The notes: a model not told the origin generated them from the sequence alone. A stretch of 63,141 bases of DNA, filler included, from Asterionella formosa (GCA_002256025.1; 25 parts of 25 records of this genome joined end to end with filler, not necessarily neighbours in it); one strand, 5' to 3'. Shown: positions 233 through 58,206, numbered from the whole stretch's first letter. Numbers and translations: made by a program.

Positions 233-325
233 TTTCTGAGTGCATCGTCAAAAGACCCGAGGTAATAATATGTAGCCCTGTCAAGGCATTATGCCTTGTG
301 TACCGGTACCTGGTACCTGGTACCA

Positions 326-420
326 ACCAGTAAAAAACTCCATTGACCCACTGGGAAAAATTTCGAACTGCATTGACCCACTGACGGTATAAAAAACACG
401 TTTTGTTATGAAAAATCATT
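326..420 (+). mobile_element. Terminal fragment of a CCAGT-ended DNA element related to the pogo-like element end in contigs 40546-42971 and 50645-53066
   Basis: ACCAGTAAAAAACTCCATTGACCCACTG...AACACGTTTTGTTAT resembles the reverse complement of 42920-42971 (ACCAGTAAAACACTGCCGTGACCCATTG...AACACGTTTTGCTAT). Confidence 0.6.
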
Positions 421-873
421 CATTTTCTATTTCTAAAGCTCCAGAATGTCTCTTGTGCATAAACCGGATGGAATCACACTGTTAGAGCATCGCCACCGCA
501 TCGACCAAATACCAAAGCCAATTGCAGTTGAAAATATCAATGCACGTCACTTGGTCGAGAAATTTTTTATCAATAGTCGAATTTTTCTTTTTTTTCCCAC
601 CGCATCGACCAAATCTTATATTAGTCAAATCTCGCGCCTATTTTATCAGCCAATAGAAATAAAGGTAGACTGTAGTTTCGTGTGTATCGCTTTGAATTCA
701 TGAAGTAGCTGCATACATACAATATTCTTAAACAGCTAGCAATACTCCTACCGGTACTATCTGGTACTGCCCATCAAAACATATTACAACTATGTACTTG
801 TATATTCGTCGTAGAGAATTGTGGCTTCTTTATTATTACCAATAAATATGACTTTTGTTTTGACACAGCGAAA

Positions 874-2143
874 ATGAGCAATGATAGCGACTCGTCAGAT
901 GACAATCGCTTCTTCCACTTCCGCAATATGCGGAAGCAAAGCGAGAATGCCAAGCAAGAAAGAAACAAGGGAGGAGGATCAAAGGTGGGAAAGGCATCCA
1001 ATCTCAATCGTTTTCGGACAGACTATGACAAGCTTTTGAAAAAGGATTATTTCGGTGAAAATCCGATTTACTCGTCAGCAATGTTCAGGAGGCGCTTCAG
1101 GATGAGACGTTCGTTGTTTGAGAAGATTCTTGATGATTTGGTTTCTTCGGATTCTTACTTTTCTCAGAAGAAGGATGCCTTGGGTTTACTGGGATTCTCG
1201 CCACACCAAAAACTTACCTCGGCGCTTCGCATGTTAGCCTATGGAACATCGGCTGATCAGTTGGATGATTTAACAATGATGTCAGAGTCAACAACACTCA
1301 ACAACTTGCAACACTTCTGTAACGCAATAATCAACAGGTATGGGAAAGAGTATCTTAGAGCTTTGACCAAAGAGGACCTTGAGATGATTCTACGTTTGCA
1401 TGAAGGAAAGGGTTGGCCGGGTCTTCTTGATTCATTGGATGTCATGCGTTGGGAGTGGAAAAACTGTCCCAAAGCACACAGAGGAGCATATCAAGGAAAA
1501 GAAGGAGTGGCGACAATTGCTTTGGAAGCTGCGGTTGATTGTAGACTTTGGTTCTGGCATGCATGGTTTGGAATGCCCGGGGCAAACAATGATCTTAATA
1601 TTTTGGATCGTTCACCGTTTTTCCATGATTTGTCAGCTGGAAGGACTCCAAAAGTACAGTTTGCCATCAACAACCAACAACACAATCTGGGGTATTATTT
1701 GGTTGACGGAATCTACCCAAATTGGCATATATTTGTCAAGACAATTTCAGAGCCACAAGGTCCAAAACGGAGTTATTTCTCGATGCGTCAGGAGGCACAG
1801 CGCAAGGATGTTGAGCGAGCATTTGGAGTTCTACAGGTCAGGTGGAGGATCCTTGCACTTCCATGTAAACTTTGGTCAGTGGGTGCTATGAACAGTGTAA
1901 TTATTGCATGCATCATTTTGCACAACATGATCATAGAGGATGAATAGGAAACTGAAAATACAAATGAATATCTATTTGACAATATTCAGGATGGATTCTT
2001 GGTTGACAACGTGAATCATGACAATGTACACACATTTCTTGATTTCAAGAATATTAGAATGAACTACATGAGTGAAGGTGAACACTTTTCAATTGAGTAA
2101 CAATTTGATTGAGCACTTGTGGATTCAATACGAGAACAAATAG
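874..2143 (+). pseudogene. Harbinger/PIF transposase (HARBI1-like, plant-transposon type), with premature stop at 1945-1947 and a frameshift near 2088
   Basis: Motifs FRRRFRM, SLDxMxWEWKNCP, GANNDLNIL, YYLVDGIYP, QEAQRKDVERAFGVLQ, CIILHNMI; the conserved tail NNLIEHLW lies downstream in another frame. Confidence 0.92.
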
Positions 2144-2265
2144 TAGATAATTACTTGATTCTAGATTTCTATTTTAAGTCTTTAAAGTTCAAGTTCTAGA
2201 TTGGCAGCAATAATGAAAGGATTAGTGTAATGTAATGTCACTATAATCAAACTAGTTTAATACTC

Positions 2266-2442
2266 TTATGGTCCAGTCTCTAGAATCGAAACCTCATCAT
2301 CAGTAGATGATGAACGAGAAGTTGAAATATCTATTTCAACTGAACTGCCTGACTCCAAAGAACCGGTCTTTGTTTTTTTGCGTGATGGTTTTGAACTATC
2401 CTCCATCTCCTCCATAGCTTCTTGAGCCTTCATAGCAAACCA
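2266..2442 (-). CDS. C-terminal end of the Harbinger accessory ORF (probable Myb/SANT or NAM-associated type), partial
   Basis: Open 58-codon frame WFAMKAQEAMEEMED...ETGP* convergent with the transposase, the usual Harbinger layout. Confidence 0.55.
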   Translation of the reverse strand, partial: WFAMKAQEAMEEMEDSSKPSRKKTKTGSLESGSSVEIDISTSRSSSTDDEVSILETGP

Positions 2443-2542
2443 NNNNNNNNNNNNNNNNNNNNNNNNNNNNNNNNNNNNNNNNNNNNTTAATTAATTAANN
2501 NNNNNNNNNNNNNNNNNNNNNNNNNNNNNNNNNNNNNNNNNN
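2443..2542. other. Artificial contig spacer N44-TTAATTAATTAA-N44 (first of 24, recurring about every 2.53 kb up to 60626-60725)
   Basis: Identical 100-nt block with stops in all six frames between unrelated sequences; contig lengths fall roughly from 2442 to 2416 nt. Confidence 0.99.
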
Positions 2543-3051: not shown

Positions 3052-3178
3052 GATGATAATGACCCCAACACTGAACAACGATGCGCAAAAGCGGACTCCC
3101 AGAACGCCGAAACAAACGTTGCTCGCTGGCCAGCAGTTTTCCCTTCGAATATTACAACAATCAACCGATAAAGGCTAC

Positions 3179-3818: not shown

Positions 3819-3949
3819 AATGATGGATGATGAGCAATGTCGTTGTTGTTGTTATGAATGGTATACAAGGGTATGATATATTGTAGCCGAGGAAAGTGGT
3901 GACAGGAAGATCTTTTTGATTTTCTATAAATCATCTCGTTGCATTCCAA

Positions 3950-4645
3950 TACCGGTATATTTATAGATTGATGTATCGGTAGTATACCGGTACAAAAAAG
4001 AATATAAATACATGTATGAATACCGGGTATTACGACTTAGTATCCTTAGCAACATTTGTACCGGTATAAGGTTAACTGTTATAGTACCTGGTACCGGTAC
4101 ATCAATTGGCGTGGTACCACATACTGTACCATAGGTCAAGAGGTCTATTTTACGCATGCATGCATGGTGGGGTTTGATTTAGTACCTGGTACCTGGTACC
4201 TGGTACCGAGTGTTGTAGCTATGAGGATTTTTTGTTTGCTTCTCAGCCATAGGTACGAATTTCGCCGAATCCTCTGGTGAAGAGCTCGTAGTACCTGGTG
4301 CGTACCGGAAATAGTCCTTGATAACTAATATTCATATCTGAGGTATGCACGTATCTTACAGGCAAAATGCAAATAAATACTATACATACATATATCTTAG
4401 ACTACCGGGTATCCCTGAGCTATAGGTACTGTTCCAGGTAGGTACCAGGTTTCTGGTACCCTTAACTCTATACCACAATGATGTAATGGTTTATACAGTA
4501 CAGGTATTTTTGCTAAATGCAGTGGTACATACCCTGGCATCCTGGTACCTGTAGTACCGGTATTCCTGTCTGTAGTAGACCTACTGGTACCGGTATCCTG
4601 TCTTGTTATTTTAGATACTGGTACTGGTACCAGGTACCAGGTACG
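3950..4645. repeat. Cluster of TACCGGTA and (TACCWGG)n palindromic micro-arrays
   Basis: For example 4181-4208 GTACCTGGTACCTGGTACCTGGTACC and 4616-4643; similar arrays at 301-325, 9337-9355, 16682-16712, 29155-29170, 32961-33006, 57141-57189 and 57885-57980. Confidence 0.9.
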
Positions 4646-5510: not shown

Positions 5511-7719
5511 TCATAGAACTGTGATGATTTCTTTAAAAATTTTATGATATAATTTTGATCAAAATATGATCATGTTAAAATAATACATTGATAATAAAAT
5601 ACGATAAAATATGTACGCAAGTGTTATCGATACTTCACAGAAAATAAATAAATCAATCATATTTATGTTACTTGATATATAAATTAGACTTTTAATGTAG
5701 ACAGTAAAAGCCAACAGTTAATATGATAGTATTATACGGTGGATAGGATCTAAGTATACGGATGCATTAATTTGAACATCACTATAATATGATTTGTGAT
5801 ATGGATGGATGCATATCACATACCGGTATCCTCAACAACCGGCCATCACGTTCATTGTCATGTCGTTTTTCCTTGTTATAGCTGTATTTATGCCGGCATG
5901 TGTATTGTGTAAACACTACGCTGGCGGAACATGCATATTACACTGCTGTGCTCTGTTCAACAATTACTACACTCGGTTACCATCACACCAGCTGCACCTC
6001 CACAAGCGCCTCAAAAAGCTCCGCGTTTCCCTTCCACTGTTTTACATCATATTCTTTTGGCCCTTTGACAACTTGCTTTCCAAATGGCATTTCATGGATT
6101 TCATGCAAAGGATCAGTCAAACAAGAAACGTGACTTCATTTACTTTCATTGTTTACACTACACGACTTCATGTTTTCGGAAAAGAAGATGAAAAAACCTA
6201 TGAAATCAATCGAAGATTCTTTTGATTACACTCAAAGATCAGATGAATTTGAACAGATTCAAGTATGCCGAGCGATACAATAGTGGCAGAGATTGAAAAG
6301 AAGGGAAGATTGCTTTCGAAGAGCCAAGGAAACCCAAACAGTTTTTCTTCGCGGATGAAGACTCTATTCCTACAGAGTCACAGTTCCATCCAGTGTCGTA
6401 TTTTGCTCCTCATTCTCCCGAAATCGCTGATAATGAAGAAGAACTCAGTGATTCTCATTCATTTGATGAACAAATTCATGCGATGAATGAAATATCGGCG
6501 GTAATATGGGAGACATCACTTCAGAAGAAGAAATGGTTGAAAAGTTGCAAAACCAAGAGATATATCTCACTATCCGTCCAGAACATCAAGATGAACATCA
6601 TGAAAGCAGAGAAACTATTGCATTTTTAAAAGAAAAGTTATTCAAGAAAAAGTCCGAGCTAGATCAAGACCTCGAATTCAAGAAGATCAATGCAGACAGA
6701 GATGTGATGACCATACTGGCTAAGGCAGTTGATGCTCTGATTAGGGAACGAAGTCAGAAACACAAAATTGAATCTTTTTCCAAATCATACATGGAAGAAA
6801 AAGAATTTCTCTGTAAAATCATCGAGAACAATCCCGAAGGCAGCTAGCCTACTTTTGTGAAGAGTCAGCATGTGAAATGTGTAGAGTTATTATGCCAAAG
6901 CAAACTGCATTTTCCTTGAGTTTGCCGAAAACTCATGGACAACTAAAATTGTGGAAAGAGTTGTACACACGTACCCCACAAGAAATATGCAATTACACCT
7001 CTGTATTTTATGGAGTCAAAGGTATCAAAAAATCATCTTCAGATTTTAAAGATCTTGCATTTTGGGACCTTGAAACAATTACTTTGCTCTATGATCCATT
7101 ATATAATTCATGAACTTCATCCAACTGATGTAAAGGTCAGAGACGAAACATAGTAATTATCCTTTTTTAATTGCTCCAATACCTCCTTGGGCTTCACTGG
7201 TATCCTAGATTGAATAGAACCTTCTTGCGGTTTTAAGGCAGGCACAACAAATGCAGTGTACAGAATGTTGTTAAACTCAACCACACTCAGTTCAGTTGTA
7301 TCGCTGCATATAGTAGTGTCGCCTTTCGCAAAAAACATACGTTTATGAGCTTTTATTTCGGATGAACTTTTCAAGGAACGTATAGAGGCTAAACGAATGG
7401 AAGTATCGTTCGAGAAAATCACATTTCCCCAAAGAATTACATTTCCCCAAAGAAATAATTTTCCAGGAACAGTAAATGAATTTGACCCATCCCCCTTCTC
7501 CCAGTTCACTTCAATCTAATCNNNNNNNNNNNNNNNNNNNNNNNNNNNNNNNNNNNNNNNNNNNNTTAATTAATTAANNNNNNNNNNNNNNNNNNNNNNN
7601 NNNNNNNNNNNNNNNNNNNNNCTGCATTTTCACACTGAACATCACATTTTTATCTTTATTACCCTACACAGAAACTCAGCGTGTTCTCCGGTGGAGGATT
7701 TATATTGAAGAATATCTTC

Positions 7720-9115: not shown

Positions 9116-9139
9116 AGGTTTTCCCTTGGTGTGGGAGAG

Positions 9140-9336
9140 TGAGCGATCTTGCACATCAATACAGATGTATATAGGGTTAGTGTTATATCATATATGTATC
9201 AGAACTCAATAATGAGAGAACTCGACTAACCCTCATTGTATACTTTGGTGTCGACTTAGAGAATGAGTTACACACAAGGATTAACAAATAAGCTCATATA
9301 TTCAACAAATACTACTACTTCTAGTTAGATACTTCA
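9140..9336 (+). mobile_element. Gypsy 3' LTR (TGAGCG...ATACTTCA), preceded by a polypurine tract
   Basis: Follows the integrase and GTGGGAGAG; homologous to 56946-57140 (minus) and 43824-44022. Confidence 0.85.
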
Positions 9337-9744
9337 CCAGGTACCTGGTCCTGGTGGTCCGATATGAAAACTGCTTTGAACCTACCGGTATATCGAAATT
9401 ATTTTACCGCTTTGAACCTCTATGAGTAGAATAACACGTTTTGTCACGAATTTCTGATAGTTTACAAATCTGAAACGATCCATCAGTGGGCGCGCTCTGA
9501 TAATAAAAAATTATTATATCATGTGTGTATTATAACACAAATTATTCTGGTGATCTGCTACATAATATCGTCCTTGCGCTCTGAAGAGATATTTTAGATT
9601 ACTTCTCTGACATTATATATATTTTTAACTTTAATTTTCAACAGTTAAATTTTCATATCAATGCATCCTCTTGTATGCTATGCCGCCTCTTGTTCATTAT
9701 ATGCATGAGTTCTATATATTCATCATTGTCGGTCACTGACCACC

Positions 9745-10050: not shown

Positions 10051-10439
10051 NNNNNNNNNNNNNNNNNNNNNNNNNNNNNNNNNNNNNNNNNNNNTTAATT
10101 AATTAANNNNNNNNNNNNNNNNNNNNNNNNNNNNNNNNNNNNNNNNNNNNTGGTGTTCTATTGGTTTTTAGTTTTATGATCATACAATCCTAAAACTATG
10201 ATGATTTACTGTCCCACTGCAGTAGCAACAGTCCTGAACATATGGTGTTCTGTTGCTAGTTTACTACTCCGACTACCCCCAGTATATCACTTACTACCTG
10301 CTACTGGTACTCTGTATATATATCTGATGTATTGTTATTGTCATATGATGTACCGGTACACATGAAGAGCTCCCAACCAAAAAAGGGGCTTAAACAATTT
10401 GCTACCAAAACCCTTGCGGTTATGACTAACACCAATTGA

Positions 10440-11960
10440 ATGGTCTAAATAATTTGTTTCAACGGACGTAGAAAATATCGATGCAAACAAATTTCAGAAA
10501 CAATACCGGTACACGTAGTCGTGGAAAACAATGGACAAATAGTGCATTGAGTATTTTCGAATTATGTATATGCGAGTATGATCATCCCAACCATATCAGA
10601 TGTTCCATATCGAGAGCGCCTTTGAATTTTATAAATGTATAACACTTAATATGTATATATATGTATATATATATATGTTTACAAATTTTATTACTATATT
10701 CATGGCATATATATTTTTTTTAAATCGTTCTGTCATGTTAACAAACAATGCCTGCTGCTTCATGAAAAGATACATTGTAGTAAAGCACATGACAAGCAAA
10801 GAAAGTTTATGCAATACATAACGAAAAACATTGAGGCTTCGACACATTGCGCATTAGAAGGATGGATGATGTTTAAGGTAATGAAGCCATCAATGTGGTA
10901 CTTGGATGACAATCGTTGGGAGGCAGGTAGCACAACAACAAATTGTTAACTAAACGCAGCCACATTTCCTTTTTTCTCTGTTGATTCAACAGCTCGATTC
11001 GCTTGTTGGGGAGCACCAATGTAAAACAAAACCAAATTGCTTAAGTGCTCTTGTCGCCCGTTGGACCTATTCATTTCTGTTGGAACAAAGCTGACAAAAC
11101 GCTTACCTTCTCTCAAAGTCAAGCTGACAAAAATGAACCGGTAAGTTTTATTCGACAACATTGGATACCCGAAACTTACTTATTCAAGAATTTGGCTTAC
11201 TGACAAGTTACTATTACAGACTTATGCATCAGTTGCATTGATTTGTGGTAAGTGAAACAAGAGGATATGATGGAATTGCGTGTTCTTGTGTCAATGTAAC
11301 ATGACTAGCTAACATATCATTCCTTCTCATTGTTACTGTAACTGCATGCATAGGAAAATAAAAATTATCAAACAACGGAATAAACGGCAACAAGTTCACA
11401 ATGACACTTACAGCAGGGAAAGAGACGCAGCATCAGTAAGGCACTGCCTCGCACACGATTCAGAAAAGAGGAAGAAATTGGCGAGACAGGAACAATATAC
11501 ATTGAGCCGAGTAGAGAGAGAAATGTTGGGTTGCTGGCATGTAGATTAATAGATAGCATTGCTTAATTTGATAGTTAAATTACGATCCATTTCAATCTAT
11601 TTTGAACAATGCTTGTGATTAGAATTATGATCATGTTTACGATAGATTTACGATGAAACAATTCACATGATAGCATAGAGTTTAGCTGGTTTTAGGATAC
11701 ATTGTAGTTATAATTTACATCGGGCGATCACGAGAAGTGAATATAATATGAGAAGGTTTATGATATTGATGGGAAATGTTGTTGATCAGTTTATATACAT
11801 TGTGTGATGATAATGTTCTTATTATCATTATACTTCAATGTCGGTAAAATATTAATAAATCATCATAGTTACAAGATACCTTGATCATATTTTTGATCCA
11901 AAAATTATCATATATACGAAAATCCTGTGCCACTCAGTGTACAATACCCTTGATCCTATA
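10440..11960 (+). mobile_element. Degenerate unclassified repeat element ending ...GTGCCA..AG.GTACAATACCC.TGATC.TAT; relatives at about 13850-14753, 28900-28988 and 44940-45497 (minus)
   Basis: Shared terminal motif in three contigs, shared GTCGTGGAAAACAATG block, and about 550 nt reverse-complement match between 10755-11330 and 44940-45497. Confidence 0.65.
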
Positions 11961-16323: not shown

Positions 16324-17159
16324 TGATCATAATGGTTATATTTAGGAGGATCAACTAGTATTTATTATTGTAATTACGGAACTGTTATGTTTTGATTATC
16401 AATTAGTAGGGTACGTTTTTGTTAAACTGTTTGTTGAAATTTACGTTTACACTCTTCTAAATGGATGTTTCCCTGATTATGATACATACATGGTGAGCAA
16501 TGCTCGTTTTGTAAACTTGTTCATTTTGCATACAGAAGGATCCATCAACATGGACATGGAGATGGAGATGAATAGCACACCGTCACTATCTGGGGGTAGC
16601 CGGAATGAAACAAGTCCAAATATAATGTTTGCGCAACAGCAACAAATCAGACATGATTCCTCTGAGAAAGTGATGAGTGAGTACCGGTACCATGTACTGG
16701 TACCAGGTACCTGTCGTATCCCCGTCGTCTTGGTCTACAGTATTAGGTGTTTATTTATATAGAGGAGGATCAGAACAGCTGGATATGTTCCGATCCTGAG
16801 AATTTGAGAAAAAGAAATACGTATGTTTGCATACCAAGTCAATTCAGTGATTACGTATGCACTATTTACGTATGGAATCAGAATCACCCTACAGGAAGAG
16901 AGGAACGGATTAACCATTGGAGATCAGTTTATATCATAATTTTAGTTTACGTTTTACATTTAAACCTTTATTATCCGGTATTGCCACTGAGAATATCGTC
17001 ACTGTTTAAGACGGTTTCTGGACATTGGGCTGTTTCGTCTGCTTCAACATCAACAAGAGAGGCACTGCTGGCAAGTTCGGGATCAACCACAAGTTCAGCA
17101 TTGAATAGTGTTGCAGGTTCCAGCTGGCCTTGTTCACTTCTGAATCTCATGGGTGGCAA

Positions 17160-21589: not shown

Positions 21590-22729
21590 ATGGCTGATGC
21601 GGAACCCACCATTGCTGTTCTCCCTCCACTCAATAGTGGCCATGACGACTATGGTACGTCCTCCTCCGATGATGATGACGACGAGTATGATGAGGCAGAA
21701 GCACTTCGAACCTGCCGTCTCAAACAAGGCAAGTGTCCACAATGTGGACAAGAATTGTACAAGTTGGTGCGACGAGGGGTCTTCAGGAAAAAATCAACGT
21801 TTCTACCATTGACAGTGGAAGGGCTTGTTGTTAGAGGTCAATGTTTGAAATGTCTTGATGGAGATGAAGCACTGGCCATTGCCTTGTCCAGCATGCCAGA
21901 TGGCTTCGTAGCACTACAGGAGCCACCCACAGATGGTGCGACATCGTCGAACATTGAAGGCTTTGAGCCAATCATCACAATTCCAATTGCCACCTACGTA
22001 TCCACCAATGCAGCAGTACAGCAGGTCGATGTTACTTATACAGGTGGATTTAATAATCATGGAGAACGGCATGGGAATGGAGTATTGGTATGGAGCAATG
22101 GTGATAAATATGTTGGAACGTTTTGGAATGGACTCCGTGAAGGGGAAGGGACCATTCAATTTGCAGATGGTACGTATTCGAGTTGAATAATCTATTGCAA
22201 ATGATATTCAAAATACTTTTCAACCATATCAACTGACGCACACACGTATACGTATACACACGCAATAGGATCCGAGTATGTTGGGAATTGGGAAAATAGC
22301 AAAATGCATGGTCAAGGGACTCGTCGGTTCAATAATGGAAATGTCTTTAATGGTACTTACAGAGAAGGTAAACGAAGTGGTCATGGTCGATGCTATTTTG
22401 CCAATGGTGACATGTATGTTGGTGAATGGAAATCAGATGCCATGTCAGGCTTTGGACGTTACTATTACAATGATGGCCAATCTTTTGAAGGATCCTTTCT
22501 AGAGGGAAAGAGACACGGGAAGGGCAAGTATCAACTCACTGATGGTCGAGTGGATATATACCGGTACATTAATGATATAAGAGTTGGAGAAGGGGTTCGC
22601 TGGTCGACCAATAGGAGGAAGGCATGGCGATTAGTCGACGGGAAACCGAAGGGGAAAATAAGTTTACAAATTGCTTCACAAATCATGCTTCACATCGGAG
22701 AAGGTCAACCAGAATTGCCAGGAGTATAG
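21590..22729 (+). CDS. MORN-repeat protein with an N-terminal Cys motif; intron 22170-22268
   Basis: Repeated YxGxWxxGxRHGxG units; GTACGT...CAATAG intron joins the two ORFs in frame (FADG/SEYVGNW); CPQCG...CLKC upstream. Confidence 0.9.
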
Positions 22730-27901: not shown

Positions 27902-28229
27902 AATATCCCATGTGTCGAGGACCCTGGCAGGGGGGACAGCCGCCACTGTGTCACCACAATATGTGATGAAATCAATGGCAGGTGTTGGCTGTCCCTCCCG
28001 CCGGCTTTGGCGAGTGGAGGCCCCCCCTCGGATGGGTAACACCCGAAAGGGAAGCCGCCACGGTCCCATCAGAATCTGCAACTCCGTCATCTTCATGTTG
28101 AAGTCCCCCATCATCACAATGGGATCTTCTGGAAACTCCTGATGTAGAGCGTCCAAGGCTCGGGGCAGGGCCCTGAGCACTCGGATGCGATCCGCTCTGC
28201 ATGGGACATAGATTGTTCCCACAAGAATA
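27902..28229 (-). pseudogene. APE/EEP endonuclease fragment of a non-LTR retrotransposon
   Basis: ILVGTIYVP...IVMMGDFN...AIDFI motifs; interrupted by a MITE. Confidence 0.8.
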
Positions 28230-28875
28230 CCGTATACTTCATTGTCCTGGACCCCCCTATGGTTGCTGGACCCCCCTGTACATTTTTTTGTGGTGGAACC
28301 AAACACCCAATAATTTTTTTGTCATAGACAAAGTAACGTGCTATAATGATTTTTGTCCTCGTAGGCACTAGTATGTAATAATTTAGCTACCATTTTGCGA
28401 TTCTTTTGTGCATACAAAACACAAGAGACGACAGGTAGTGGCTGTGAGCAGCTGGAGAATCCTTCATGATGTTGTCGCAACCTTGACCATGACGAAAATA
28501 CGAATTATCTCCACGAAAATAGAGAACGACGCTTTGCTACTTGCTACATGTATTGAAAATGACATGGAAAATACAATCGTAAAAGAAGTAAAGTAATAAC
28601 ACTAATAATGACAACGAAAATTGAGATCGCCGATAACAACATGAAGTCGCGTTTTTCTTGCGAGGTGAAGAACTCTCTCATTTTTCACAAGACGGAAATA
28701 ATTGTCATATTAATCGATCTTAGAAAAATGTGCGCTATCCTGTAGAACTAAAGAAATTTACTTAGGTCCATTATAAGGGAAATCTCTTCATTGTCCTGGG
28801 CCCCCCTTAAGTAAAAACAGTCAAATTCAGTCACGGCAGTGTACATTGGGGGGTCCAGGACAATGAAGTCTACGG
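28230..28875. mobile_element. Tc1/mariner-type MITE, 646 bp, CCG...CGG ends, TA target duplication
   Basis: TA|CCGTATACTTCATTGTCCTGGACCCCCC ... GGGGGGTCCAGGACAATGAAGTCTACGG|TA. Confidence 0.9.
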
Positions 28876-30456
28876 TAAGCCTTAGCCTGTTCACTTTCAT
28901 AGTATGCATTTATCGTACATTTAACAAAATATGTATCATGCACAGAAAATTTCTGTGCCAGTTATCATATGATACCCCTGATCTTATAAGTACGATATAT
29001 ATTTTATTTGCAGACGCGTGAAATCAGCGGGTCGCCAATTTACTGGCTCAAACAGGCATGTATCAACGATCATAAGGAATTTTCCACGTGTATCAACGAT
29101 CATAAGGAATTTTCCACGTAGCGAGGAAGTACGGAGTTTCCCGTACCTCCCTCGTACCTGGTACCAGGTAACGATACAAGGCATAATACATGTACACAAT
29201 ATCATACCGGTAAAATAAAATTAACTTCGGGTATACTCCTATCTACTGTATTTATACCATGTACACAATGTTCAGTTACCAGTATATTGTTTGATTACCG
29301 GTATATACCGTACCCGGTCTCCATCTTCGGACAAATATTCGCAATACCGGTACTCCATCCAATCTTCTGGTAGGGTTTTGATACTAAACAGTATCTGTTT
29401 CGTGGATATAGCTTTGGTGGAGGCCTGTTAGTTAAAGAAGCAACGATTGTGGAGGAAAAGGTAAGCCCATTGTGACTGACATGGTGTCAGAGCTATCACA
29501 ATCCTCGCCGCCTTCATTGTTGATTGTCAACTGTCATTGCTGGAATTTCTTCTAATGATATGCATGTCTTCTTTCATAAACCTCCAAAAGTAGGCACCAG
29601 TTCGCGATTTAGCGCAACATGAAGACAAACAGAAGGCATGAAGAGGAAATAATCTTGGCAACGGAGTTTTGGGTGTTTATCGTTGATCCATTATCATGAT
29701 GTTCAGAGACAGACTGGAGCGGCGATTTGGGATTGCTGTATGGGAAGGAGGCTGTTAGGTGCAGGTGGATACACTTGAAAGTAAATTTGCCTGCTGTCCC
29801 ATGAGGTGTCCAGCCAGCCATATTCAACAATCTTCCGATGTCACCATTCTAATTATTAGGATGACAAACTATTCACTCTTCATGTTCGTAGAAATTGAAT
29901 TAACAAAAATAGACTTTAGTGTTAATCAGCAATGCATCTAGTAGTACTGCTCCTGGATTCACAACAGTACATCTAAGACGCGAAATACGCCACTTTTCGA
30001 AATTTCGTCTACGTATGAGTGTTAATTATGTGGTACTTCACATGCATTAATGCCACTCTTCACGTAAAAAAGATTACTTTTAACTGTTTCATGTGAAGTT
30101 TTAACTGTTTCATGTGAAGTTTTCACAATGAATTTTGAACGCGAGACTGAATTAGTTGATGTTTCAAATAATTCATTTGACTTTTCGAAATTTCGTTTAC
30201 GTACGAGTGTTAATTATGTGGTACTTCACATGCATTAATGCCACTCTTCACGTAAAAAGGTTACTTTTAACGGTTTCATGTGAAGTTTTAACGGTTTCAT
30301 GTGAAGTTTTAACTGTTTCATGTGAAGTTTTNNNNNNNNNNNNNNNNNNNNNNNNNNNNNNNNNNNNNNNNNNNNTTAATTAATTAANNNNNNNNNNNNN
30401 NNNNNNNNNNNNNNNNNNNNNNNNNNNNNNNCACAAGCAACTTCTATCAGGCAAGG

Positions 30457-34262: not shown

Positions 34263-34865
34263 AAATGATCAGGGTTGTTTGGTGGGAGCAGGAATGACTG
34301 TGGGCCGAAGTTCTCCTGCTTGAACTTGTGTCAGGCTACTACAGCTATGTGCATGGTTGTAGCAACCAGAGCATCTACGCTATGTGACGATGCAGATCTC
34401 AATTGGGTTCAGCTTTTTCTTCTTTTCTTCATCCAAAAACTGTATCAGTGATACACCCATGATACACTGGTGATCAGACCAAAAAAACTATTGGTGATAC
34501 ACACAAAAAACCAAACCGCCAATTTTGCATCGTATTTCGGAGATGATACACCAATGACGACCAATGACAGAATGATAAGAACGGCCCTATAAGGCACTTA
34601 ATTAACAAATGAGGTTATTATTTATATGTCTATTTCCATTTTGACATTCCTCAGACTACATCTAGTCTTCGGACACCTGTCGACATCAACAGCCTAACAG
34701 ACACATTCTGACAGTGATGGGGGGAGGAACAAATTACCGGTATTTGGGAAAGGAGTATTTTTCGTAAATAAACAACATTTACCTCTACCGGTACACCGAG
34801 TAATTGAATTACTCGTTTTATCAGATTTTTGGCAGACAATCGCTATAACCCCGCTCATCGTTGTC

Positions 34866-39190: not shown

Positions 39191-39647
39191 ATAGTACTAG
39201 CTTAGTTTCTTTTGTTTACATTTGGATGCTTTGAAAAAATTGTGTGCAATGAACAAGCTACCATCATCTTTAACATTAAAAACTAACACATGAAGGATTA
39301 TCAGCCAATATATTGCTTCCATCCCCCTTTCATGGGCTAACAATGAGTGCAATGATGATGATGAATCTCAAAATATACCAGTATTACTAGCTAGTTACCA
39401 TGTATAAACGATAGTTACAACAAGCAACAGCATTAAGGTATTCCCTAGTTTGGATCATCACAATATCTCTACAGCAGGGTTGTGGAATTTGTATGGAACA
39501 AGGAATTTCTCGGTGTTGTTGATTTTTATGAATCACCATTCTGATTAAATACCATAGCTAGCTATGCATTAGTGGTATACCTGTTATTTATTATACACAT
39601 TTCACCGGTTTTTAGTTACCAGTGACCAGCAGTGTACCGCCATTGTA

Positions 39648-39742
39648 CAGCAAGTTGCGGTCATTTTGCTTAAACTAACATTTTGATCTGGGATAAAGAT
39701 AGCTAAATCTTTAGTTTCAGCAAAATTACCGCAACTTGCAGG
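39648..39742 (+). mobile_element. MITE of about 95 bp, GCAAGTTGCGGT TIR family
   Basis: CAGCAAGTTGCGGTCATTTTGCTTAAACTAA ... TTAGTTTCAGCAAAATTACCGCAACTTGCAGG; homologue at 43676-43775; related end at 33041. Confidence 0.85.
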
Positions 39743-40545
39743 TGTATTTATATTTGTCCAACAAGCAGGAAATCATTCGACAAAATCATAACAATAAATA
39801 CTAAAGATGAGCTTCACAGGGCATTGTACGGACATCAACAGTCAGGCCAGGCCTTAGCACCTATAGAAGCATTTGAAATTTATGGGCACGATGGGGTAAG
39901 AGAATCACTTTGTTTATCTTTAATCCAAGATGACAGTTGTCAGTCAGGATCTGGTCTTTACCAATATTGGATGAAACCAATTTGGCTATAAGCTCATGAG
40001 CTAATGGTTAAAGGTTAGATGTAGCATCGTTATACGATGCTACAAATTGTTTTGATTTCAGGTCGAAGGAGTCGATCTTATGATGATGATGTGTGACATG
40101 AGGAAAAAAGGGAGATGTGATAAATACCGGTAGACAAACCCCATGATACGTAATTTTGTTGTTAACGAGCGAGGCCCACGGAACATCATTATCATCATTT
40201 TTGTTGCACGCGCAATTAGGAAATAACGAAAGTGTTAAAATATTATCATAGTTGCACTTATCGGATAGCTTCTCTGAGAATCTCTACGTGTCTCGCGTCC
40301 TCTTTTCTCGTGATTCAAGGGGGCAATCTTTGGTTGATTCGTTCAGTTCATGGAAAGAGAATCATAGAAGAACCGAACGTCATTGGGAGTGATGCAAAAC
40401 GAGAAAATAGGGCGGAATCGAACGAACCATAAACAATCATCCACGNNNNNNNNNNNNNNNNNNNNNNNNNNNNNNNNNNNNNNNNNNNNTTAATTAATTA
40501 ANNNNNNNNNNNNNNNNNNNNNNNNNNNNNNNNNNNNNNNNNNNN

Positions 40546-42971: not shown

Positions 42972-43675
42972 NNNNNNNNNNNNNNNNNNNNNNNNNNNNN
43001 NNNNNNNNNNNNNNNTTAATTAATTAANNNNNNNNNNNNNNNNNNNNNNNNNNNNNNNNNNNNNNNNNNNNTCCGTTGCCTCAAACTTGCTTGCCGTGTG
43101 CATACACACACTGTCAACTTGTTTTCAATGGTATGTTGTTCTTGTATTCACTGTTGAGCTTGTCCGCATCTTTGTTACCATCAATAGAGCGACGCAGACG
43201 AAGTGGGTCTCTTCATTGTTGTTTGCTCCTGGAAAAGTCGGTGTCCGTGTCATCCTCATCAATAGAGAGACAAGTTCTTTTTATCATTGCGGTTTGCCGC
43301 TGGAAAAATTGGTACTCATGGTATCGTCATTCGCTCGTTGGAACCACTGTCCGTTGCCTCAAACCTGATTAGCGTTTGAGTACCGGTATGTGCACTGTCG
43401 ACTTTAGTACATTACAGGCGGAGTGACTTCGCTACTAAATTGCGTGATATAATAATATACCCTGTAGCACAATGCAGAATACATGTGCTTCCCAATCATC
43501 TCATCATGATTGATAAGATGATACTGTGATATCATGATAAGGTTACATCAATGCATACATCACCAAAGTATGATACATAATATTGAATAAAGTACATCAC
43601 ATAGCTATTATACATGATGCTTGGCGCAGCACCTGCCAGTAGAGATATACCCGGCAGTGGAGCATGCCTCTGGTA

Positions 43676-43775
43676 CCAGCAAGTTGCGGTCATTTTACTT
43701 AAATAAAAATTTTAATATCGGATAAAGATAGCTAAACTTTTAGTTTCAGCATAATTACCGCAGCCAACTTGCAGG
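43676..43775 (+). mobile_element. 100-bp MITE with TA target duplication, CCAG...CAGG ends
   Basis: TA|CCAGCAAGTTGCGGT...ACCGCAGCCAACTTGCAGG|TA. Confidence 0.85.
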
Positions 43776-43823
43776 TATCATCATTCAATGGGGAACATTA
43801 CCACAAACATTACCAGTACAAGG

Positions 43824-44022
43824 TGAGCAATCGTGCTCAACTACAGACACACCTACAGAGTTAGGTTTACACAGATTTATCAGAACTCTCTCAGGAGAGA
43901 ACTTGACTAAAACCTATTTGAATACTTTAGTGTCAACCTAGGAGATCGAGTTGCACACAAGGATTACCTAATAAGCTCATATAGCTATTCAATAAATACT
44001 ACTGCTTCTGATTAGTTAGCTA
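43824..44022 (+). mobile_element. Diverged Gypsy LTR (same family as 9140-9336), cut at its 3' end by a CATCTAAG element
   Basis: TGAGCAATC start; shared GAGAGAAC.YGACTAA, CACACAAGGATTA and ATAAGCTCATAT...AATACTACT blocks. Confidence 0.75.
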
Positions 44023-44411
44023 CATCTAAGCCGCGTATTACATGAAGTGACCATCACATAAATAAGCCTAGTTGATTTTGAATGCATCACATGAATTAGT
44101 TGAATACATCAAAATACGTAGTTGAATATATCTATATATTATCTGAATACATCACGTTAAATATATGATCAAAGTATCATGCATGCATTCCTGATCATCA
44201 CTATATTATGTGATCACCTTCACATAATTATTTGAAATACTTCACATAATTATTTGAAATACTTCACGTAATTCTGTAATTTCGTTCATATAATTCTAGA
44301 ATAAAGTTCACTTAATATGTAACATTTGTTTACGTAATTTTCTGGAGTTCATTCAACTAAATTAAAGAGTTTCATTAATGAAATAAAGCCTGCTCATTCG
44401 GAACGGCATGC

Positions 44412-44880: not shown

Positions 44881-45612
44881 TTCGCCGACTATTCCGTTGT
44901 TTGGCTTTATGGTCCTATGCAGTTACAGAAACAATGAGAAGGAATGATTTGTTAGCTAGTAGTCATGTTACATTGAAACAACGACACGCAATTCCATCGT
45001 ATCCTCTTGCTTCACTTACCACAAATCAATGCAACTGATGCATAAGTCTGTTATAGTAACTTGTCAGTAAGCCAAATTCTTGAATAAGTAAGTTTCGGGT
45101 ATCCAATGTTGTCGAATAAAACTTAACTTTGAGAGAAGGTCAACGTTTTGTCAGCTTTATTCCAACAGAAGTGAATAGGTCCAACGAGTGACAAGAGCAC
45201 TTACGCAATTTGGTTTTGTTTTACATTGGTGCTCCCCAACAAGCGAAACGAGCTGTTGAATCAACTGAGAAAAAAGGAAATGTGGCTGTGTTTAGTTTAC
45301 AATTTGTTGTTGTGCTGCCTGCCTGCCTCCCAACGATTGTCATCCAAGTACCACGCACATTGATGGCTTCATTACCTTAAACATTCTCCATCCTTCGAAG
45401 GCGCAATGTATCGAAGTCACAATGTTTTTCGTTTTGTATTGCAAAAATTTTCTTTTCTTGTCATGTGCTTTACTATGACGTATCTTTTCATGAAGCANNN
45501 NNNNNNNNNNNNNNNNNNNNNNNNNNNNNNNNNNNNNNNNNTTAATTAATTAANNNNNNNNNNNNNNNNNNNNNNNNNNNNNNNNNNNNNNNNNNNNGCT
45601 GCTCCTCCTCTG

Positions 45613-50644: not shown

Positions 50645-53066
50645 CTGTTTGTTCTTTCATTTGCAAAGCTTTTTTTCAGGCAGTTGAAACAAGGGCAACA
50701 ATGTAAGATTTCTCAATAGCAAACAGCAAATCATGTTCAGTCTTTTTGGTAAGTAGGTCTCGCTTTGCAACAGTCAGTTCCATTTTGAAACTTCCATTCT
50801 GCTCTGACAAATCTCCGACTTGCCAGTAGGTTTCATAAGGGACACCTATACACACACTCCATGGGGTCAAAGGGCTGTTGATATATTCGAGAAAGGTGCA
50901 ATCAAATTGGGAGCCATGTCCATCTAGGATGAGGAAAGGGTTTATTCCATCACTGCGGTCAAACAATTCCAAAGAATCCATTTGGGCCAACATTCTCACC
51001 AACAGTTCTGCAGTTATGCTTCCTGATTCCGAACAAGAACACAAAGTGGGCACATGCTTTCCATTTAACACACACACAGTTCCCTGGGGATATCGCTTTC
51101 CTTTGCCAGTGTTAAGGTTGAAGTCATTCTCATTGCCATGCCATTCCACAAACGGGTTAATCCCCTGTACCCAACTAGTAAGTTCAAGCTCTTTGGCAGC
51201 GAATATTATAGCACACATCACTGGAGTTCCTTCAGCAGCCAGCTGTAAATCCCAAGACTGTAAAATGCGCATCCTTCATAGCACTTCGTTGTTGTGTTCT
51301 TGCTGCTGTTCCAATACATAACACTTTCTCATCCCCCTTCTGTCCATCTTTTGCTTGACTGGTGTTACTTCCGACTTCATCAACAAATATGAGTTTGTTG
51401 GGATGCTTCAAAATGTACTTGGTTTTCATTCCCAGGGCTCCTTCCTCATTTGCAACAACATCTCCTGATTTATTCAACTACACTTCTTCATCCAGCTTTT
51501 CCGCAATACCCATCTTGGCCATTTCTTCATACACATCTCTATACATCTGGTGCTCAAAGTTCCGTAATGTGCACCAGTCAGCACGCATCCCATCGAATTT
51601 GACACCTTTCTTTGCCTTGACATGAAGCCAATTGCGACTCATGAATCCCATCCAGTACCCTGATCCCAGTGGTTTAGAGAATGTTGGATCCTCTCTGAAT
51701 GAAATGCAATGTTTCTGCCTCCACAGAACAATATTTTCCATTATGGAAATACCAGACGCAAGTGAGTTAGCAAGTTCCAGTCCCTACCAACATGTAATTG
51801 GGACTCGCATTTTAGAGAGTTGGTCAATCAGCACAATAATGTATGGCTCAACTTCGAGCATTGGTGACATTGAAGCTTCGTTTTTCCCTGGGGTTTTTTG
51901 CGTTTTGCCCGAGATCTCACTGTTTCTATCTTTATTTTAAATCCAGGAGGAATACCAAGCGCCTCTTTTCTCCCCCCAATTATGCAGGCAAGTGTGAATC
52001 TACTTGCTTTCTTGTTCTTTTGCTGCAGTTCTTCTCTAACCCTCATGTATTCTGTGGCCGACTGGACAATGAATTCTTCGATTTTTCTTTGTATCGATGC
52101 TGATGCCATTTGAGTGGTGGTTCCCTTTGGCCAGCCTCCAGTAAGTATGGCGGTCATGGGGACAATGACTGCAGGAACACTAACTGCAGCAGTAGTCATA
52201 GTTGTAGAAAATAATTCAATACTATAATAGCATTGATATAATCATCTACTCCTGTCATGTTGTCATCCTCTTCTCTTGTCAAAGCAGATGCTCTAGTACT
52301 ACTTGAATAGTAAAATGAGAGCATATCTGCCTGAGAATCTCCTGATAGTATACCCATGTTGGGGACAGCACTGGCACCTGCCTTTCATAACCAGTAGTCG
52401 ACTTTTTTTGTCAGCCAAGGTAAACCTTCTGAGCCTTCACCATGTTGGTAATGGCTCTGTATGGTAGCTTTCCATTATTGTTCGCCTTGATTGTTTCAAG
52501 TTCTGTAACAATGCCAAGCATGTTGTGTTGAATAACGACCTGAGCATAATGAAGTGCTTCTGTCTCCTTCTTGATGCTGGAAGATCAACTTTTTCTTGAC
52601 TTCGGCTGGTTTGCATGATAGCTGTTTACTGTTTTTCATGTTTTGTGGACTGACGGATAAATAAATATCAACATCCTCAATCATACTATATAGGCGCACC
52701 CATATCATTTGCCATCTCTGCTGTACAATTCAAAACCAAAACAAATCTTTATTGCTGTAAATGTGGTTAACGTTCAGACACTAATTAAATCAATATCGAA
52801 ATATTTGTAAATATCATTGTAAAATATATGACGATGAGAACTCCAAACTTACCCTAATCCGTGTTCTCTATGTTTTTTTGGTCGATTCACTATTTCCGGC
52901 AATCTAAAGAGATGAACAATTGACTCCAAATCTTAAACAAAATACATAGCTGACTAGCCTACATGCTCGAGAAGGAGCCAGAACTCTCAGAATTTACATT
53001 TACTTAAGTTTTGATAGCAAAACGTGTTATTCTGCGTTCAATGGGTCACGGCAGTTTTTTACTGGT
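50645..53066 (-). mobile_element. pogo/Fot1-like DNA transposon, copy 2
   Basis: Colinear and highly similar to 40546-42971, with the same contig ends. Confidence 0.88.
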
Positions 53067-53510: not shown

Positions 53511-54430
53511 CACATTTAGCAACACCGCGCCGGTGTTTTTCTGGTAGAAAGTACGTTGTTGTGGTACAATGAGAGAATCCAGGCCGCGCCAGGAGTTTTG
53601 CCACACAGCAGGAGAGTCCACACACACAAAAATTAGCATGGTGAAAAAGTAAGCAATCAATGCAGCCAACAGCCAATCATCCCCTACTGGCTCTTCAGCA
53701 GCTAGATTAACATGTTTTTGTTGTGTATCTAAATGCTAGTATGGCTTGTCAGCTCACGCATTGTTGTTGATAACAGGCAGGGACAATGAGGTCCGGAATG
53801 AAAGTTGTTCTGGTAAGATTACCGCGCTATTTTGACGGCTATATGAGCAATGCTACTGATAACTCACACTGATCTTCCTCTACATTCAATTGACATTGCA
53901 GCAAACCCTTTCAATTCAGGAGCATTCGGAAGAAATCCAGGATTGAGTATTGATGCTTTCTGATTCTGTGTTAATGTCATATGATAACAGGGCTCCGTAA
54001 ATCATGAGTTGTTAGTGTGCCTCGGCGTGCTGTTTGTCATGCTGCCAGCTGATGCTGTATTTCTACTGAATTATTGAACAACTGGCACATAAAGATTCGC
54101 ATAGTCGTTAATACATTACGTGAACTATATTATAGAATTACGTGAACAAAAATTTAAGGCAATGTGAACTGAATTACAGAATTAATTGAAGTATTTCAAA
54201 TAATTATGTGAAGTATTTCAAATAATTATGTGAAGATGATCACGTAATATAGTGATGATCAGGAATGCATGCATGATACTCTGATCAAATAATGAACGTG
54301 ATGTATTCAGATAATATATAGATATATTCAAGTAAGCATTTTGATGTATTCAACTAATTCATGTGATCCATTCAAAATCAACTAGGCTTATTTACGTGAT
54401 GGTCACTTCACGTAATACGCGGCTTAGATG

Positions 54431-55290: not shown

Positions 55291-55687
55291 CAAATTGTCG
55301 CTGTTGGTTCCTTGATTGGTGGCTGTGGCCTTAAGCTGCGCTACTCGAATCTATAGAATGTAAATTCCGCGATTGAGATGTCGAAACTCCAGCCTTCCAT
55401 GTGAGTCTCAAAACGGCTGGCTCCTTTTGTTTTAATGTTTTTATTTTATTTATTTTTATTTCGAAACAATGTTGTTTCAACTACCGTAATCGACCGTATC
55501 GCAGGCCTTGAACCTTGTACTGTGTCAATCGAATACAGTTGATGAAATTAATAGTAACGAAGAAGTCGTCAACTTAAACTTTCACTTNNNNNNNNNNNNN
55601 NNNNNNNNNNNNNNNNNNNNNNNNNNNNNNNTTAATTAATTAANNNNNNNNNNNNNNNNNNNNNNNNNNNNNNNNNNNNNNNNNNNN

Positions 55688-56900
55688 ACCACTGAAATTT
55701 CCTGGGCAGATGTATTCTCGGTTGGATCGGCACGTGGCACGGTACCCCAACCGGATGGACGAGTATTATGACTCGATGTATTTAACATACGAGCATGTGG
55801 AACAGGCACAGGGTGAGCAGTGTCAGTATGATAGCTTTCCGTAGGATTGCTGTGTGCACCGCCTCCACGACCACCAAAATGTCCTCGTCTACCAAAACTG
55901 GAACGGCCATATCCATTTAGACGACCAGCCATGCGACCTGCTCGACCACCTTGAGTACGAGGATTCTGGAAACAATTGCCCCAAGTATGTACACCTTCAG
56001 GATGCACCGGGCAAGGACCACGATAATCATGGTACATACGACTGGCTTGTAGAGCTTGATGACGAACAGTTGCCTGAAGATCCCATGCGCGTCCGGCTGC
56101 ATTGACAATAGCACGCGCCCTTCACGACCACTTGGAGTAAAATAATCCTTGTAGAATTGACTACTGACACGCTCGTTTTCTTGATGCATCACACGATTGC
56201 CTTCAGCAATGCGAAGACGGTTCTGTGTGATTATTTGAAAACTGTTCTTGGGAAGATGCTTGTTTCGATCCTTAAACGATTGTTGACTCTCGAAGTAAGA
56301 GAGAACCGAGCGAATCGATTGGTCTGAAGTCTTTGCATGATTTAATTCAAACTCTTGTTGCCACTCATCGGGCATAGAACGGATAATGATAATCCGTATA
56401 TCTTCTTTTGACAATCCAACTTGATCTTCTGGATGAGGCATTAGTTGAAGTAGCCTGTTTAAAGTTTTAATACGAGCTCCGAAATCCATTACCAACATAG
56501 AAAAGGGTTTAGATAAATAACGTAGCATCCATTGTCATTGATGTTGAAAACTCTCATTTGGTAAACGATCGTCTAACCATAAAACCATCGCTTCATCGAA
56601 ACTATTGTAAGATTGATCTTCTGGGTGTACTTCCACATTCAACCAATCCGATAAGGCAATGTCTGTCAAACACCTTTTAAAGTAGGAAAAGGTATCTGCA
56701 GGGCTAAAGGCACATGTGTTAGCCATGTCACGAAATTGACTCACTCCAATTAACAATGCTTCCACTGAGCTTCCATCGATCATATCTTGATCAAACGATT
56801 CAAACCTTCCACCGGTTAAAGCAACTCTGAACCTTTTAGTCTTGATGGTCAATAAATTGTAGTCTTTGATCAAAGGAATCACAGGAACCCTTGAATACAT
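55688..56900 (-). pseudogene. Gypsy gag remnant
   Basis: LRYLSKPFSM, SMPDEWQQEF and a CPVHPEGVHTWGNC (CX2HX4HX4C) knuckle; directly downstream of an LTR. Confidence 0.8.
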
Positions 56901-56945
56901 TGCCAAGTTTGTTGTCTTCTAATTCGAATCTTTTTGAATTCAAAG

Positions 56946-57140
56946 TGAAGTATCTAACTTGAAGTAGTAGTATTTATTGAATATATGAGCTTATAAATTA
57001 ATCCTTATGTACAACTCATTTCCTGAACTGTAATCAAAGTATAGAATGGATGTTAGTCGGGTTCTCTCATTATTGAATTCCGATGTATTTGATATAACCC
57101 TAACTCTATATATATCTGTATCGATGTGCAGGATTGCTCA
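56946..57140 (-). mobile_element. Gypsy 5' LTR (195 bp)
   Basis: Minus strand TGAGCAATC...GTTAGATACTTCA, homologous to 9140-9336. Confidence 0.85.
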
Positions 57141-57189
57141 CCAGGTACCTGGTACTCCGGAATACCTGGTACTGGTACCTGGTACCAGG

Positions 57190-57849
57190 AGTTGGTAGAT
57201 GCTACGTATCTGTAGCTCTCACGCAGTAAAATTTGCTAGAAAAATGTTTCTACACAATTTGTTTGTTTTACTTTGTTTGCTAATAATTGTTTTTATAAAA
57301 GAGTGAGCTTAATGTAAATGTAAATTTGAATGTATGATTTTGAAACTTCCAAGCTCATGCATGTTTCAAAATAGAGGGGATCTTCGGAGGCGAGGTTCAT
57401 TTGTGTTCCCAACTTGAACTGAGAATAAACTACATCCTCTTCCTAAATACACATTTGTCTTAATCTTGGCCTGTCTCAACTTAGGCCAGATGCTGTTTGA
57501 TCGAAGACTGCTTACAGAATGATCCTGTTAATCATAGCTAGATCATATCTAGTTTGCTTCTTTAATGTTCCTTGATGTTACGGACATATCTGTAATTGTC
57601 TAGTCAATCATTTATTGATTTGGCTTCTAGGTCTGATCGTCTTCTAGAGTCCAATTAACAGGTTAGAGAGAACTTCTCCGGAAAGTTCCTCTCTCAACTG
57701 TGGCATTTTACACGCGATATTTAACCATGTAATCTTGAATCAATCATCTAGTGGATTGTGGTACATGTTCCTAATCAGGTCACTAGAGGCGAAAATATAT
57801 TGACACTCATAACCTGATCAGGAATCAGGAATCTCTATGTGTTTCAACT
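57190..57849. mobile_element. 660-bp solo-LTR-like insertion with AGTTG...CAACT ends and a CCAGG target duplication
   Basis: CCAGG (57185-57189)|AGTTG ... CAACT|CCAGG (57850-57854); no ORF; internal hairpins. Confidence 0.72.
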
Positions 57850-58206
57850 CCAGGTAGCAGGGAGTACAACCTGTGTGTTACAAGGGTACCTGGTATTCAG
57901 TGACGGTACTTGGTACCTGGTACCAGTGCTGGTACCAGGTATATGGTTGTCAACGGGTACCTGGTACCAGGCACCGGTATTTAACGCCTGCTATGTTCCG
58001 GTTCCTCTGTGAAGGATGCGGTTAAATGACAAATCAGTGTGATGAACACATGCATACCACTCGGTAAGTAGAAATTCTAGTTTACTGGACAAACATAAAC
58101 GGAGTANNNNNNNNNNNNNNNNNNNNNNNNNNNNNNNNNNNNNNNNNNNNTTAATTAATTAANNNNNNNNNNNNNNNNNNNNNNNNNNNNNNNNNNNNNN
58201 NNNNNN

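Follow-up and report, generated by a model that had tools for sequence, protein, structure and literature searches.

Excision footprints of DNA transposons are usually treated as rare, single-locus curiosities. The closest described systems are elements that insert at TA. For Sleeping Beauty (SB) and mariner, the relevant passages of PMC7827188 describe how the non-transferred strand is cut three letters within the element, so that 3-nt 3' overhangs remain on the flanks at the donor site, and how end joining turns those same overhangs into the footprint. For Stowaway/mariner and Osmar elements, parts of two further accounts (PMC4561436, PMC1925063) describe footprints that keep both TAs, the target site duplications, together with 1-4 nt of the terminal inverted repeat (TIR). 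In intron 4 of the Triticeae beta-amylase gene a Stowaway element has re-inserted at the TA beside an older footprint, from which repeated gain and loss at one site was deduced (PMC1925063, in the passages concerned). Here we analyse a stretch of 63,141 bases from the diatom Asterionella formosa (GCA_002256025.1; the window, taken at its full length), in which the words TACCGGTA and TACC(A/T)GGTA are strongly over-represented, and we argue that they are probably the excision footprints of resident TA-inserting cut-and-paste transposons.

The window is made up of 25 contigs of 2416-2442 bp each, sorted by length and joined by spacers of the form N44-TTAATTAATTAA-N44. It holds 21 copies of TACCGGTA, compared with 0.31 expected from 100 dinucleotide shuffles of the window (largest count 2) and 0.48 under a second-order Markov model, and 19 copies of TACCWGGTA (W, A or T), compared with 0.28 expected. 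An earlier note on this DNA had claimed the over-representation of TACCGGTA on the strength of 20 positions; all 20 are exact, a 21st was added at 22559, and the claim is confirmed. The octamer occurs in 11 of the 25 contigs, and 21 of the 28 ACCGGT hexamers in the window lie within it. GGTACCA, ACCGGTA, CTGGTACC and ACCAGGTA head the list of 7- and 8-mers for the whole window.

Tabulating every word of up to 7 nt between successive TAs that occurs at least four times, against an analytic Markov expectation, gave 21 versus 0.48 for CCGG (43-fold), 19 versus 0.52 for CCWGG (37-fold) and 11 versus 2.3 for CCAG/CTGG (4.7-fold). These units number about 50 in 61 kb, or ∼0.8 per kb. The remaining top words of this kind, such as CTTCACA, are in our reading probably fragments of a 22-bp tandem repeat. 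The flanks of TACCGGTA are biased, with a purine before and a pyrimidine after at 14 of the 21 sites, compared with 33% of all TAs (P = 0.0015). Two other words may be mentioned from the counts for the whole window, TAGCTA (26 versus 7.5 expected, 3.5-fold) and ATGCATGC (15 copies).

Comparison of related sequences reveals the octamer as a clean 6-bp unit at a TA in two cases. Between paralogues in contigs 18 and 3, which share 86% identity across 441 aligned columns, the difference at a TA is exactly CCGGTA, as had been proposed for positions 43381 and 5283. A second pair put forward with it, 10504 and about 13898, proved weak and was rejected as indel evidence: its left-hand homology is poor, and a mismatch has to be allowed. 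The other case is allelic. Depth, joints and alleles at the level of sequencing runs were compared for contig 12 in 4 runs of 4 studies, as Logan contigs (not raw reads). In run X2, which belongs to a different study from the probable source run, a 115-nt contig over 29192-29312 lacks exactly six letters at 29205 and shows one other difference; its depth is 183.1 of 1200.5 (one contig), so that the form without the 6 bp is a minority allele. The comparison for contig 12 lists no indel at 29296 or 29345. At 29166, contigs of runs X1 and X8 each have GG inserted within a TACCAGGTA unit. Contigs 17 (40546-42971) and 21 (50645-53066) are 97.7% identical over their whole length and, judging from this likeness, would be either haplotypes or a recent duplication; nine indels separate them, five of exactly 3 bp, and two of the nine take the form TA-G-TA and TA-C-TA.

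Which elements could have left such scars? Four families of TA-flanked elements, (a) to (d), are resident in the sampled DNA (coordinates in the table). A search for TA-flanked inverted repeats found the window copy of family (a), whose TIR of 34 nt is 94% matched in the window and matches at 20 of 20 positions in metagenome copies. The latter come from eight contigs of other assemblies that match the family (a) TIR pattern (loci such as L003, L004, L006 and L008; 16.7 kb in total, two of the eight being one locus). In all four runs family (a) is covered 10-50 times as deeply as the unique DNA on its right, and loose ends occur at both of its borders, where copies of the flanks diverge exactly. 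Complete copies at other loci are 652 bp long and 97.5-99.8% identical, and the family is therefore young. TA stands directly before all 13 TIR ends (2 in the window and 11 in metagenome loci, with differing flanks), and in the four complete copies it is the sole sequence common to both flanks. The TIR pattern found no match in genome-contig or viral-contig collections, and the open reading frames (ORFs) inside family (a) have no Pfam match.

All three of the other families start with CC. Family (b), a miniature inverted-repeat transposable element (MITE), begins CCAGC/CCTGC; family (c) begins CCTGG, has the termini CCTGGTGAG…CTTCACCAGG and is preceded by TA at four of four ends; family (d) begins CCGTAAAACC…, thus with the CCGTA start, and has TA at two of two ends. 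At 16489 a fifth, doubtful match to the tip of family (c) is left out of this count, since it is probably coding sequence. When the window and the metagenome loci were scanned strictly for complete TA-flanked TIR pairs, the hits were copies of family (a) and, in contig 2, two pairs of one array with another. Families (a), (c) and (d) show duplication of a TA target, as in the ITm group, and family (a) has terminal inverted repeats; with lengths of about 100, 205 and 650 bp, high copy number, homogeneity, TIR and TA, the elements also resemble Stowaway-like MITEs. The prediction that the inner letters of the motifs match the tips of resident elements holds, with CCG…CGG for families (a) and (d), CCT…AGG for (c) and CCA…AGG for (b). 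Two observations concern the surroundings of family (a). In L004 (1-60) its right tip is followed by TA and then by CCGTAATTGG, perhaps the end of a further element of the CCGTA type that shares this TA. On its left, the 650-bp element is flanked by high-copy DNA (27902-28321, minus strand) with a weak endonuclease/exonuclease/phosphatase match (E 0.003), and this match suggests that the element sits inside a repeat resembling a long interspersed nuclear element (LINE).

A transposase appears to lie behind the same TIR. The 2.3-kb contig L003 starts with TA and the family (a) TIR, has about 135 terminal bases in common with the MITE, and then diverges into an ORF with a Pfam DDE_1 match (E 2.6e-22). 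The full protein, P0195, runs for 394 aa from Met to stop and is apparently intact; it falls in a 90%-identity cluster of 88 sequences, helix-turn-helix (HTH) domains of the pogo/CENP-B kind occur in its relatives, and a search by sequence gave no solved relative. A loose end of run X7 at 28347 continues as L003, and the autonomous form is therefore present in a freshwater sample too. Downstream of a family (d) terminus, on the same contig (L006), lies a second transposase fragment, 46% identical (E 1.4e-32). A candidate active pogo-type transposase is thus available from a diatom, together with a MITE that matches it. PIF/Harbinger, another superfamily of DNA transposons, is represented in the sampled DNA by an ORF at 709-1944 (plus strand) with a strong transposase match (Plant_tran E 8e-79, DDE_Tnp_4).

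Elements and footprint-like units also lie side by side. A unit directly adjoins 6 of 18 element ends, compared with a background of 0.030 (P ∼1e-5), and in all five cases with CCGG or CCWGG the unit agrees with the prediction for the family concerned: TACCGG-TA precedes (a) in L006 and (d) in L008, and CCWGG-TA precedes (c) in contigs 23, 4 and L006. In contig 18, TACCAG-TA precedes (c). The whole gap between two elements in L006 consists of TA-CCGG-TA-CAC-TA-CCTGG-TA. This adjacency of element ends and footprint-like units implies that scars have been re-used as targets, and the occurrence of the neighbouring unit in both W orientations argues against slippage at the tip.

Irregular arrays, defined as two or more units no more than 25 bp apart, are present in 6 of the 25 contigs, bearing out the earlier description of mixed-orientation arrays. 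In them CCGG, CCTGG, CCAGG and CTGG are interleaved with odd spacers, units of 6 and of 7 bp occur together, with either W letter, and the longest identical run is three units. Tandem Repeats Finder (TRF) reports 7-bp arrays at 300-324, 4182-4207, 32961-33006 and 57140-57186, of which those at 4182-4207 and 300-324 include perfect same-orientation runs of GTACCTG (3.7 copies). Apart from such runs of up to 3.7 units, the head-to-tail repetition of one unit in one orientation that characterises a slippage microsatellite is not seen.

The excision chemistry that would account for these motifs is applied by analogy from SB/mariner and Stowaway/Osmar. An element would insert and duplicate its TA; later excision by staggered cuts would leave each flank with TA and two or three terminal letters as a 3' overhang, and end joining would fuse the overhangs. 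Where the tips are CCG…CGG, as in families (a) and (d), the overhangs could pair through CG, giving TA-CCGG-TA. The CCA (top) and AGG ends of family (b) would have one A:T pair in common, giving TA-CCAGG-TA, and the CCT and CCT ends of family (c) would give TA-CC(A/T)GG-TA by a mismatch or a one-letter trim, while CCA plus G would produce the CCAG/CTGG class. Family (a), at least, would have arisen by deletion from a pogo-type (DDE_1) element with an intact 394-aa transposase. Each scar would offer two TAs, and re-insertion there through repeated cycles would add 6- and 7-bp units and so build irregular arrays.

Several points weigh against this account. The first concerns the indels themselves, since the predicted dominance of TA-x-TA insertions was not borne out: they make up only 3 of the 25 indels in all paralogue and allele alignments, most of the remainder being exact 3-4-bp tandem duplications, and we infer the direction, gain or loss, of the two 6-bp indels. 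The octamer at 22559 is ruled out as a scar and is a chance occurrence, because it encodes a conserved Tyr-Arg-Tyr at a position where 12 of 12 aligned homologues of the MORN protein have three residues and no gap (YRY in 9 of the 12). One-sided forms typical of Mos1 are not enriched in the window (TACCGTA 6 versus 4.3, TACCTTA 6 versus 6.5), nor is the further one-sided form TACCATA, and full fill-in forms are absent from it, implying that repair would need an unusually stereotyped outcome. The CCT/CCT overhangs are non-complementary, so that the CCWGG product depends on the mismatch or trim just described. Clean family (b) borders are found in only some copies. No Tc1/mariner/pogo domain occurs in the 126 window ORFs of at least 80 aa, tblastn of the window gave no pogo-type transposase, and the link between transposase and family (a) is one element end on one 2.3-kb contig. 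We infer excision itself, since among the joints listed (15 of 41, contig 12) none skips the whole 650-bp element and no empty donor site is seen. The core of the earlier note's reading as excision footprints is supported by the TA-anchored insertions, the tip letters and the apparent transposase behind the same TIR; the reading fails for the octamer at 22559 and for the expected prevalence of TA-x-TA.

The strongest rival, which we nevertheless regard as unlikely, holds that the GGTACC(W) arrays are a 6/7-bp near-palindromic slippage microsatellite that happens to be a preferred target of TA elements, isolated TACCGGTA copies being decayed units. The perfect same-orientation runs at 4182-4207 and 300-324 are as it would predict; because the unit is near-palindromic, the apparent mixing of orientations reduces to an A/T polymorphism at one position, and a target preference would explain elements beside arrays as well. 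Slippage is moreover active in the sampled DNA, as most of the other indels are 3-4-bp tandem duplications. Examples of these (AGGC, ACT, TGCA, AGG and CTG) are seen in repeat copies, such as 10756-11388 versus 44884-45497, and in other pairs, and they would represent a second, separate small-insertion process. Slippage, however, cannot turn TA into TACCGGTA at an isolated site without a prior repeat. It also accords poorly with arrays in which unit length (6 or 7 bp) and W letter vary, spacers other than units occur, and no run exceeds three identical units, and it leaves unexplained both the identity of the inner letters with the element tips and the family match of the adjoining unit.

Far less probable is an origin of the arrays as sub-repeats in the inverted termini of foldback-like elements, which would make them part of a mobile element. 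The contig 2 arrays at 4183-4205 and 4617-4643, 461 bp apart, do form a 16/16 inverted match, and two arrays in contig 23 are separated by about 700 bp; the segments between arrays, however, have no copies elsewhere in the window or the loci, W orientation is mixed within both contig 23 arrays, and neither isolated TACCGGTA nor the 6-bp indels are explained. We give marginally less credit still to selection, under which TACCGGTA and GGTACC would be palindromic protein-binding or methylation-related intergenic sites. Their palindromic form, their clustering in apparently non-coding stretches and their CCGG and CCWGG cores are compatible with it, whereas presence and absence take the form of a clean 6-bp insertion at TA with no point changes, and the motifs are also found inside and beside transposons.

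Contig 12 is present in 19 sequencing runs of 11 studies, one an algae metagenome, probably the source, and the rest freshwater, lake or river metagenomes; with its motifs it is covered in all four runs compared, from four studies, and the 16.7 kb of metagenome contigs contain five TACCGGTA and seven TACCWGGTA. A sequencing, amplification or assembly artefact, for which one could cite the very fragmented assembly (contigs of ∼2.4 kb) and the start of contig 14 inside an array, is thus scarcely credible: the motifs do not belong to a single library, and they and the elements recur in independent metagenome assemblies, where an artefact would have been expected to be absent.

If the motifs are footprints, how did the arrays grow? 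The claim of the earlier note that scars stack is upheld in so far as elements lie at the outer TA of scars (L006, L008, contigs 4, 18 and 23) and units are mixed. It falls short for runs of up to 3.7 identical units, which fit slippage equally well and tell against excision to that extent. Re-use of scars may account for the adjacency and yet not for all array growth, and the short perfect runs may be due to slippage. That stacking is the main builder of the arrays we therefore advance tentatively, as a possibility somewhat short of probable. The same caution applies to a wider proposal, a 'footprint ratchet', in which pogo-type elements and their MITEs might repeatedly excise and re-enter the TAs of their own scars, each cycle adding a 6- or 7-bp palindromic unit, so that transposition and not slippage would make GGTACC(W) micro-arrays genome-wide. 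If true, it would mean a slippage-independent birth of a microsatellite, with scars as the most over-represented oligomers of a diatom genome.

Table. Positions in the window of the TA-flanked elements, footprint-like arrays and single sites (a slash marks an element border).
Feature	Position	Strand	Remarks
Family (a), non-autonomous TIR element, 650 bp including two flanking TA	28228..28877	+	tips CCGTA…TACGG, TIR ~34 nt
Family (b), MITE ~100 bp with flanking TA	43674..43777	+	tips CCAGCAAG…CTTGCAGG
Family (b), second copy, degenerate borders (TA/C-AG… and …CAGG-TG-TA)	39646..39746	+	
Family (c), ~205 bp	9139..9343	+	right tip …CTTCACCAGG/TA intact, left degenerate, CCTGG unit follows
Family (c), copy	56945..57147	-	tip TA/CCTGGTGAGC adjoins 57146-57184 array
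Family (c), diverged copy (TA/CAAGGTGAGC)	43817..44018	+	TACCAGTA before it
Array TA-CCGG-TA-CCTGG-TA-CCTGG-TA	301..322	.	
Three-unit cluster CCGG … CCTGG-TA-CCGG	4059..4099	.	
Three CCTGG units in perfect succession, the array that slippage would most readily explain	4183..4205	.	
Mixed 7-unit cluster CCGG, CTGG, CCGG, CTGG, CTGG, CCAGG, CCAGG	4555..4643	.	
Array CCGG, CCATG, CTGG, CCAGG	16682..16709	.	
Pair CCTGG-TA-CCAGG, W orientations opposite	29155..29170	.	
TACCAGTA then TACCGGTA	29277..29303	.	
Array CCTGG, CTGG, CCTGT and further units, at very start of contig 14	32961..33006	.	
Array CCTGG, (CTCCGGAA), CCTGG, CTGG, CCTGG adjoining family (c) tip	57146..57184	.	
Loose cluster, CCTGG and CCAGG units	57887..57966	.	
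Isolated TACCGGTA	749..756	.	upstream part of PIF/Harbinger transposase ORF
Two isolated TACCGGTA (3950, 3985)	3950..3992	.	
Isolated TACCGGTA	5821..5828	.	
Isolated TACCGGTA, 40 bp past family (c) tip	9383..9390	.	
Isolated TACCGGTA	10351..10358	.	
TACCGGTA, weak paralogue evidence for indel	10504..10511	.	
Isolated TACCGGTA	29345..29352	.	
Two isolated TACCGGTA (34735, 34786)	34735..34793	.	
Isolated TACCGGTA	40125..40132	.	
TACCGGTA, paralogue at 5283 with TA alone	43381..43388	.	
Polymorphic TACCGGTA	29205..29212	.	run X2 allele without exactly 6 bp
Coding TACCGGTA, no scar	22559..22566	+	Tyr-Arg-Tyr in MORN-repeat protein

The rest of the window has eukaryotic gene content (ribosomal protein L10e, Utp11, MORN, LRR and PP2C domains) and a GC content of 35-46% per contig. 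The best named relatives of Utp11 are from diatoms (Synedropsis cf. recta 64%, Phaeodactylum 60%), and the relatives of the MORN protein are diatom proteins too. An LRR protein gene at 18741-20070 has a nested 72/144/216-bp periodicity (LRR_14, LRR_1). Besides the PIF/Harbinger transposase there are Ty1/copia pieces: the end of contig 15 (37401-37918) and the start of contig 24 (58207-58724) are 99.4% identical over 518 bp within a Ty1/copia polyprotein (RVT_2), and on this evidence the two contigs probably join, or else carry two copies of one element. A repeat family with a 22-bp tandem unit is found in contigs 10, 11, 18 and 22 (22930-23213, 44078-44316, 54180-54376 and 25383-25527).

Scars occur in the sampled DNA about once every 1-3 kb, and one of them still varies within a natural population; scars thus appear to be a major mutational input there. 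Should this be true genome-wide, they would make the past movements of transposons legible in a diatom, serve as a simple sequence marker of ongoing DNA-transposon activity in environmental samples, and offer a testable route for the birth of short tandem arrays without slippage. In open-access full text, with subscription journals outside its coverage, the papers listed included no description of footprint arrays or footprint enrichment in diatoms or elsewhere, and the octamer was found there in primers and barcodes only, among the 20 listed of 509 papers. The chemistry, the relation of MITE to transposase and re-insertion beside an old footprint are already known, as the passages concerned in PMC1925063 indicate. 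What is new is that the units are dense enough to be the commonest oligomers of the window, that the product is stereotyped and two-sided, and that units form chains.

Finally, how do the diatom scars compare with the systems described at the outset? They share with the ITm footprints of Sleeping Beauty, Mos1 and Osmar5 with its Stowaway MITEs the duplication of TA and, in the chemistry proposed, the retention of both TAs and a few tip letters and the end joining of 3' overhangs (PMC7827188, PMC4561436, in the parts that deal with excision). In contrast, the diatom scars are among the most over-represented oligomers, at ∼0.8 per kb, are two-sided only and are stacked in arrays. The Stowaway element of beta-amylase intron 4 likewise occupies the same TA beside an earlier footprint, a case that the passages concerned (PMC1925063) present for a single locus from phylogeny, whereas here adjacency is seen at 6 of the 18 element ends and chains of units in 6 of the 25 contigs. 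With pogo/Tigger elements and their MITEs, the families described here have in common TA duplication, TIRs and short non-autonomous derivatives with common termini and, through the candidate transposase, a DDE_1 catalytic domain and relatives that carry HTH domains. Tips in the pogo superfamily are usually CAG-type; those found here begin CCGTA, and the autonomous copy is known from one end. Slippage microsatellites, lastly, also form short tandem arrays, with some perfect runs and a 6-7-bp unit, but in the diatom arrays lengths and orientations are interleaved, TA bounds every unit, and the content is that of transposon tips.

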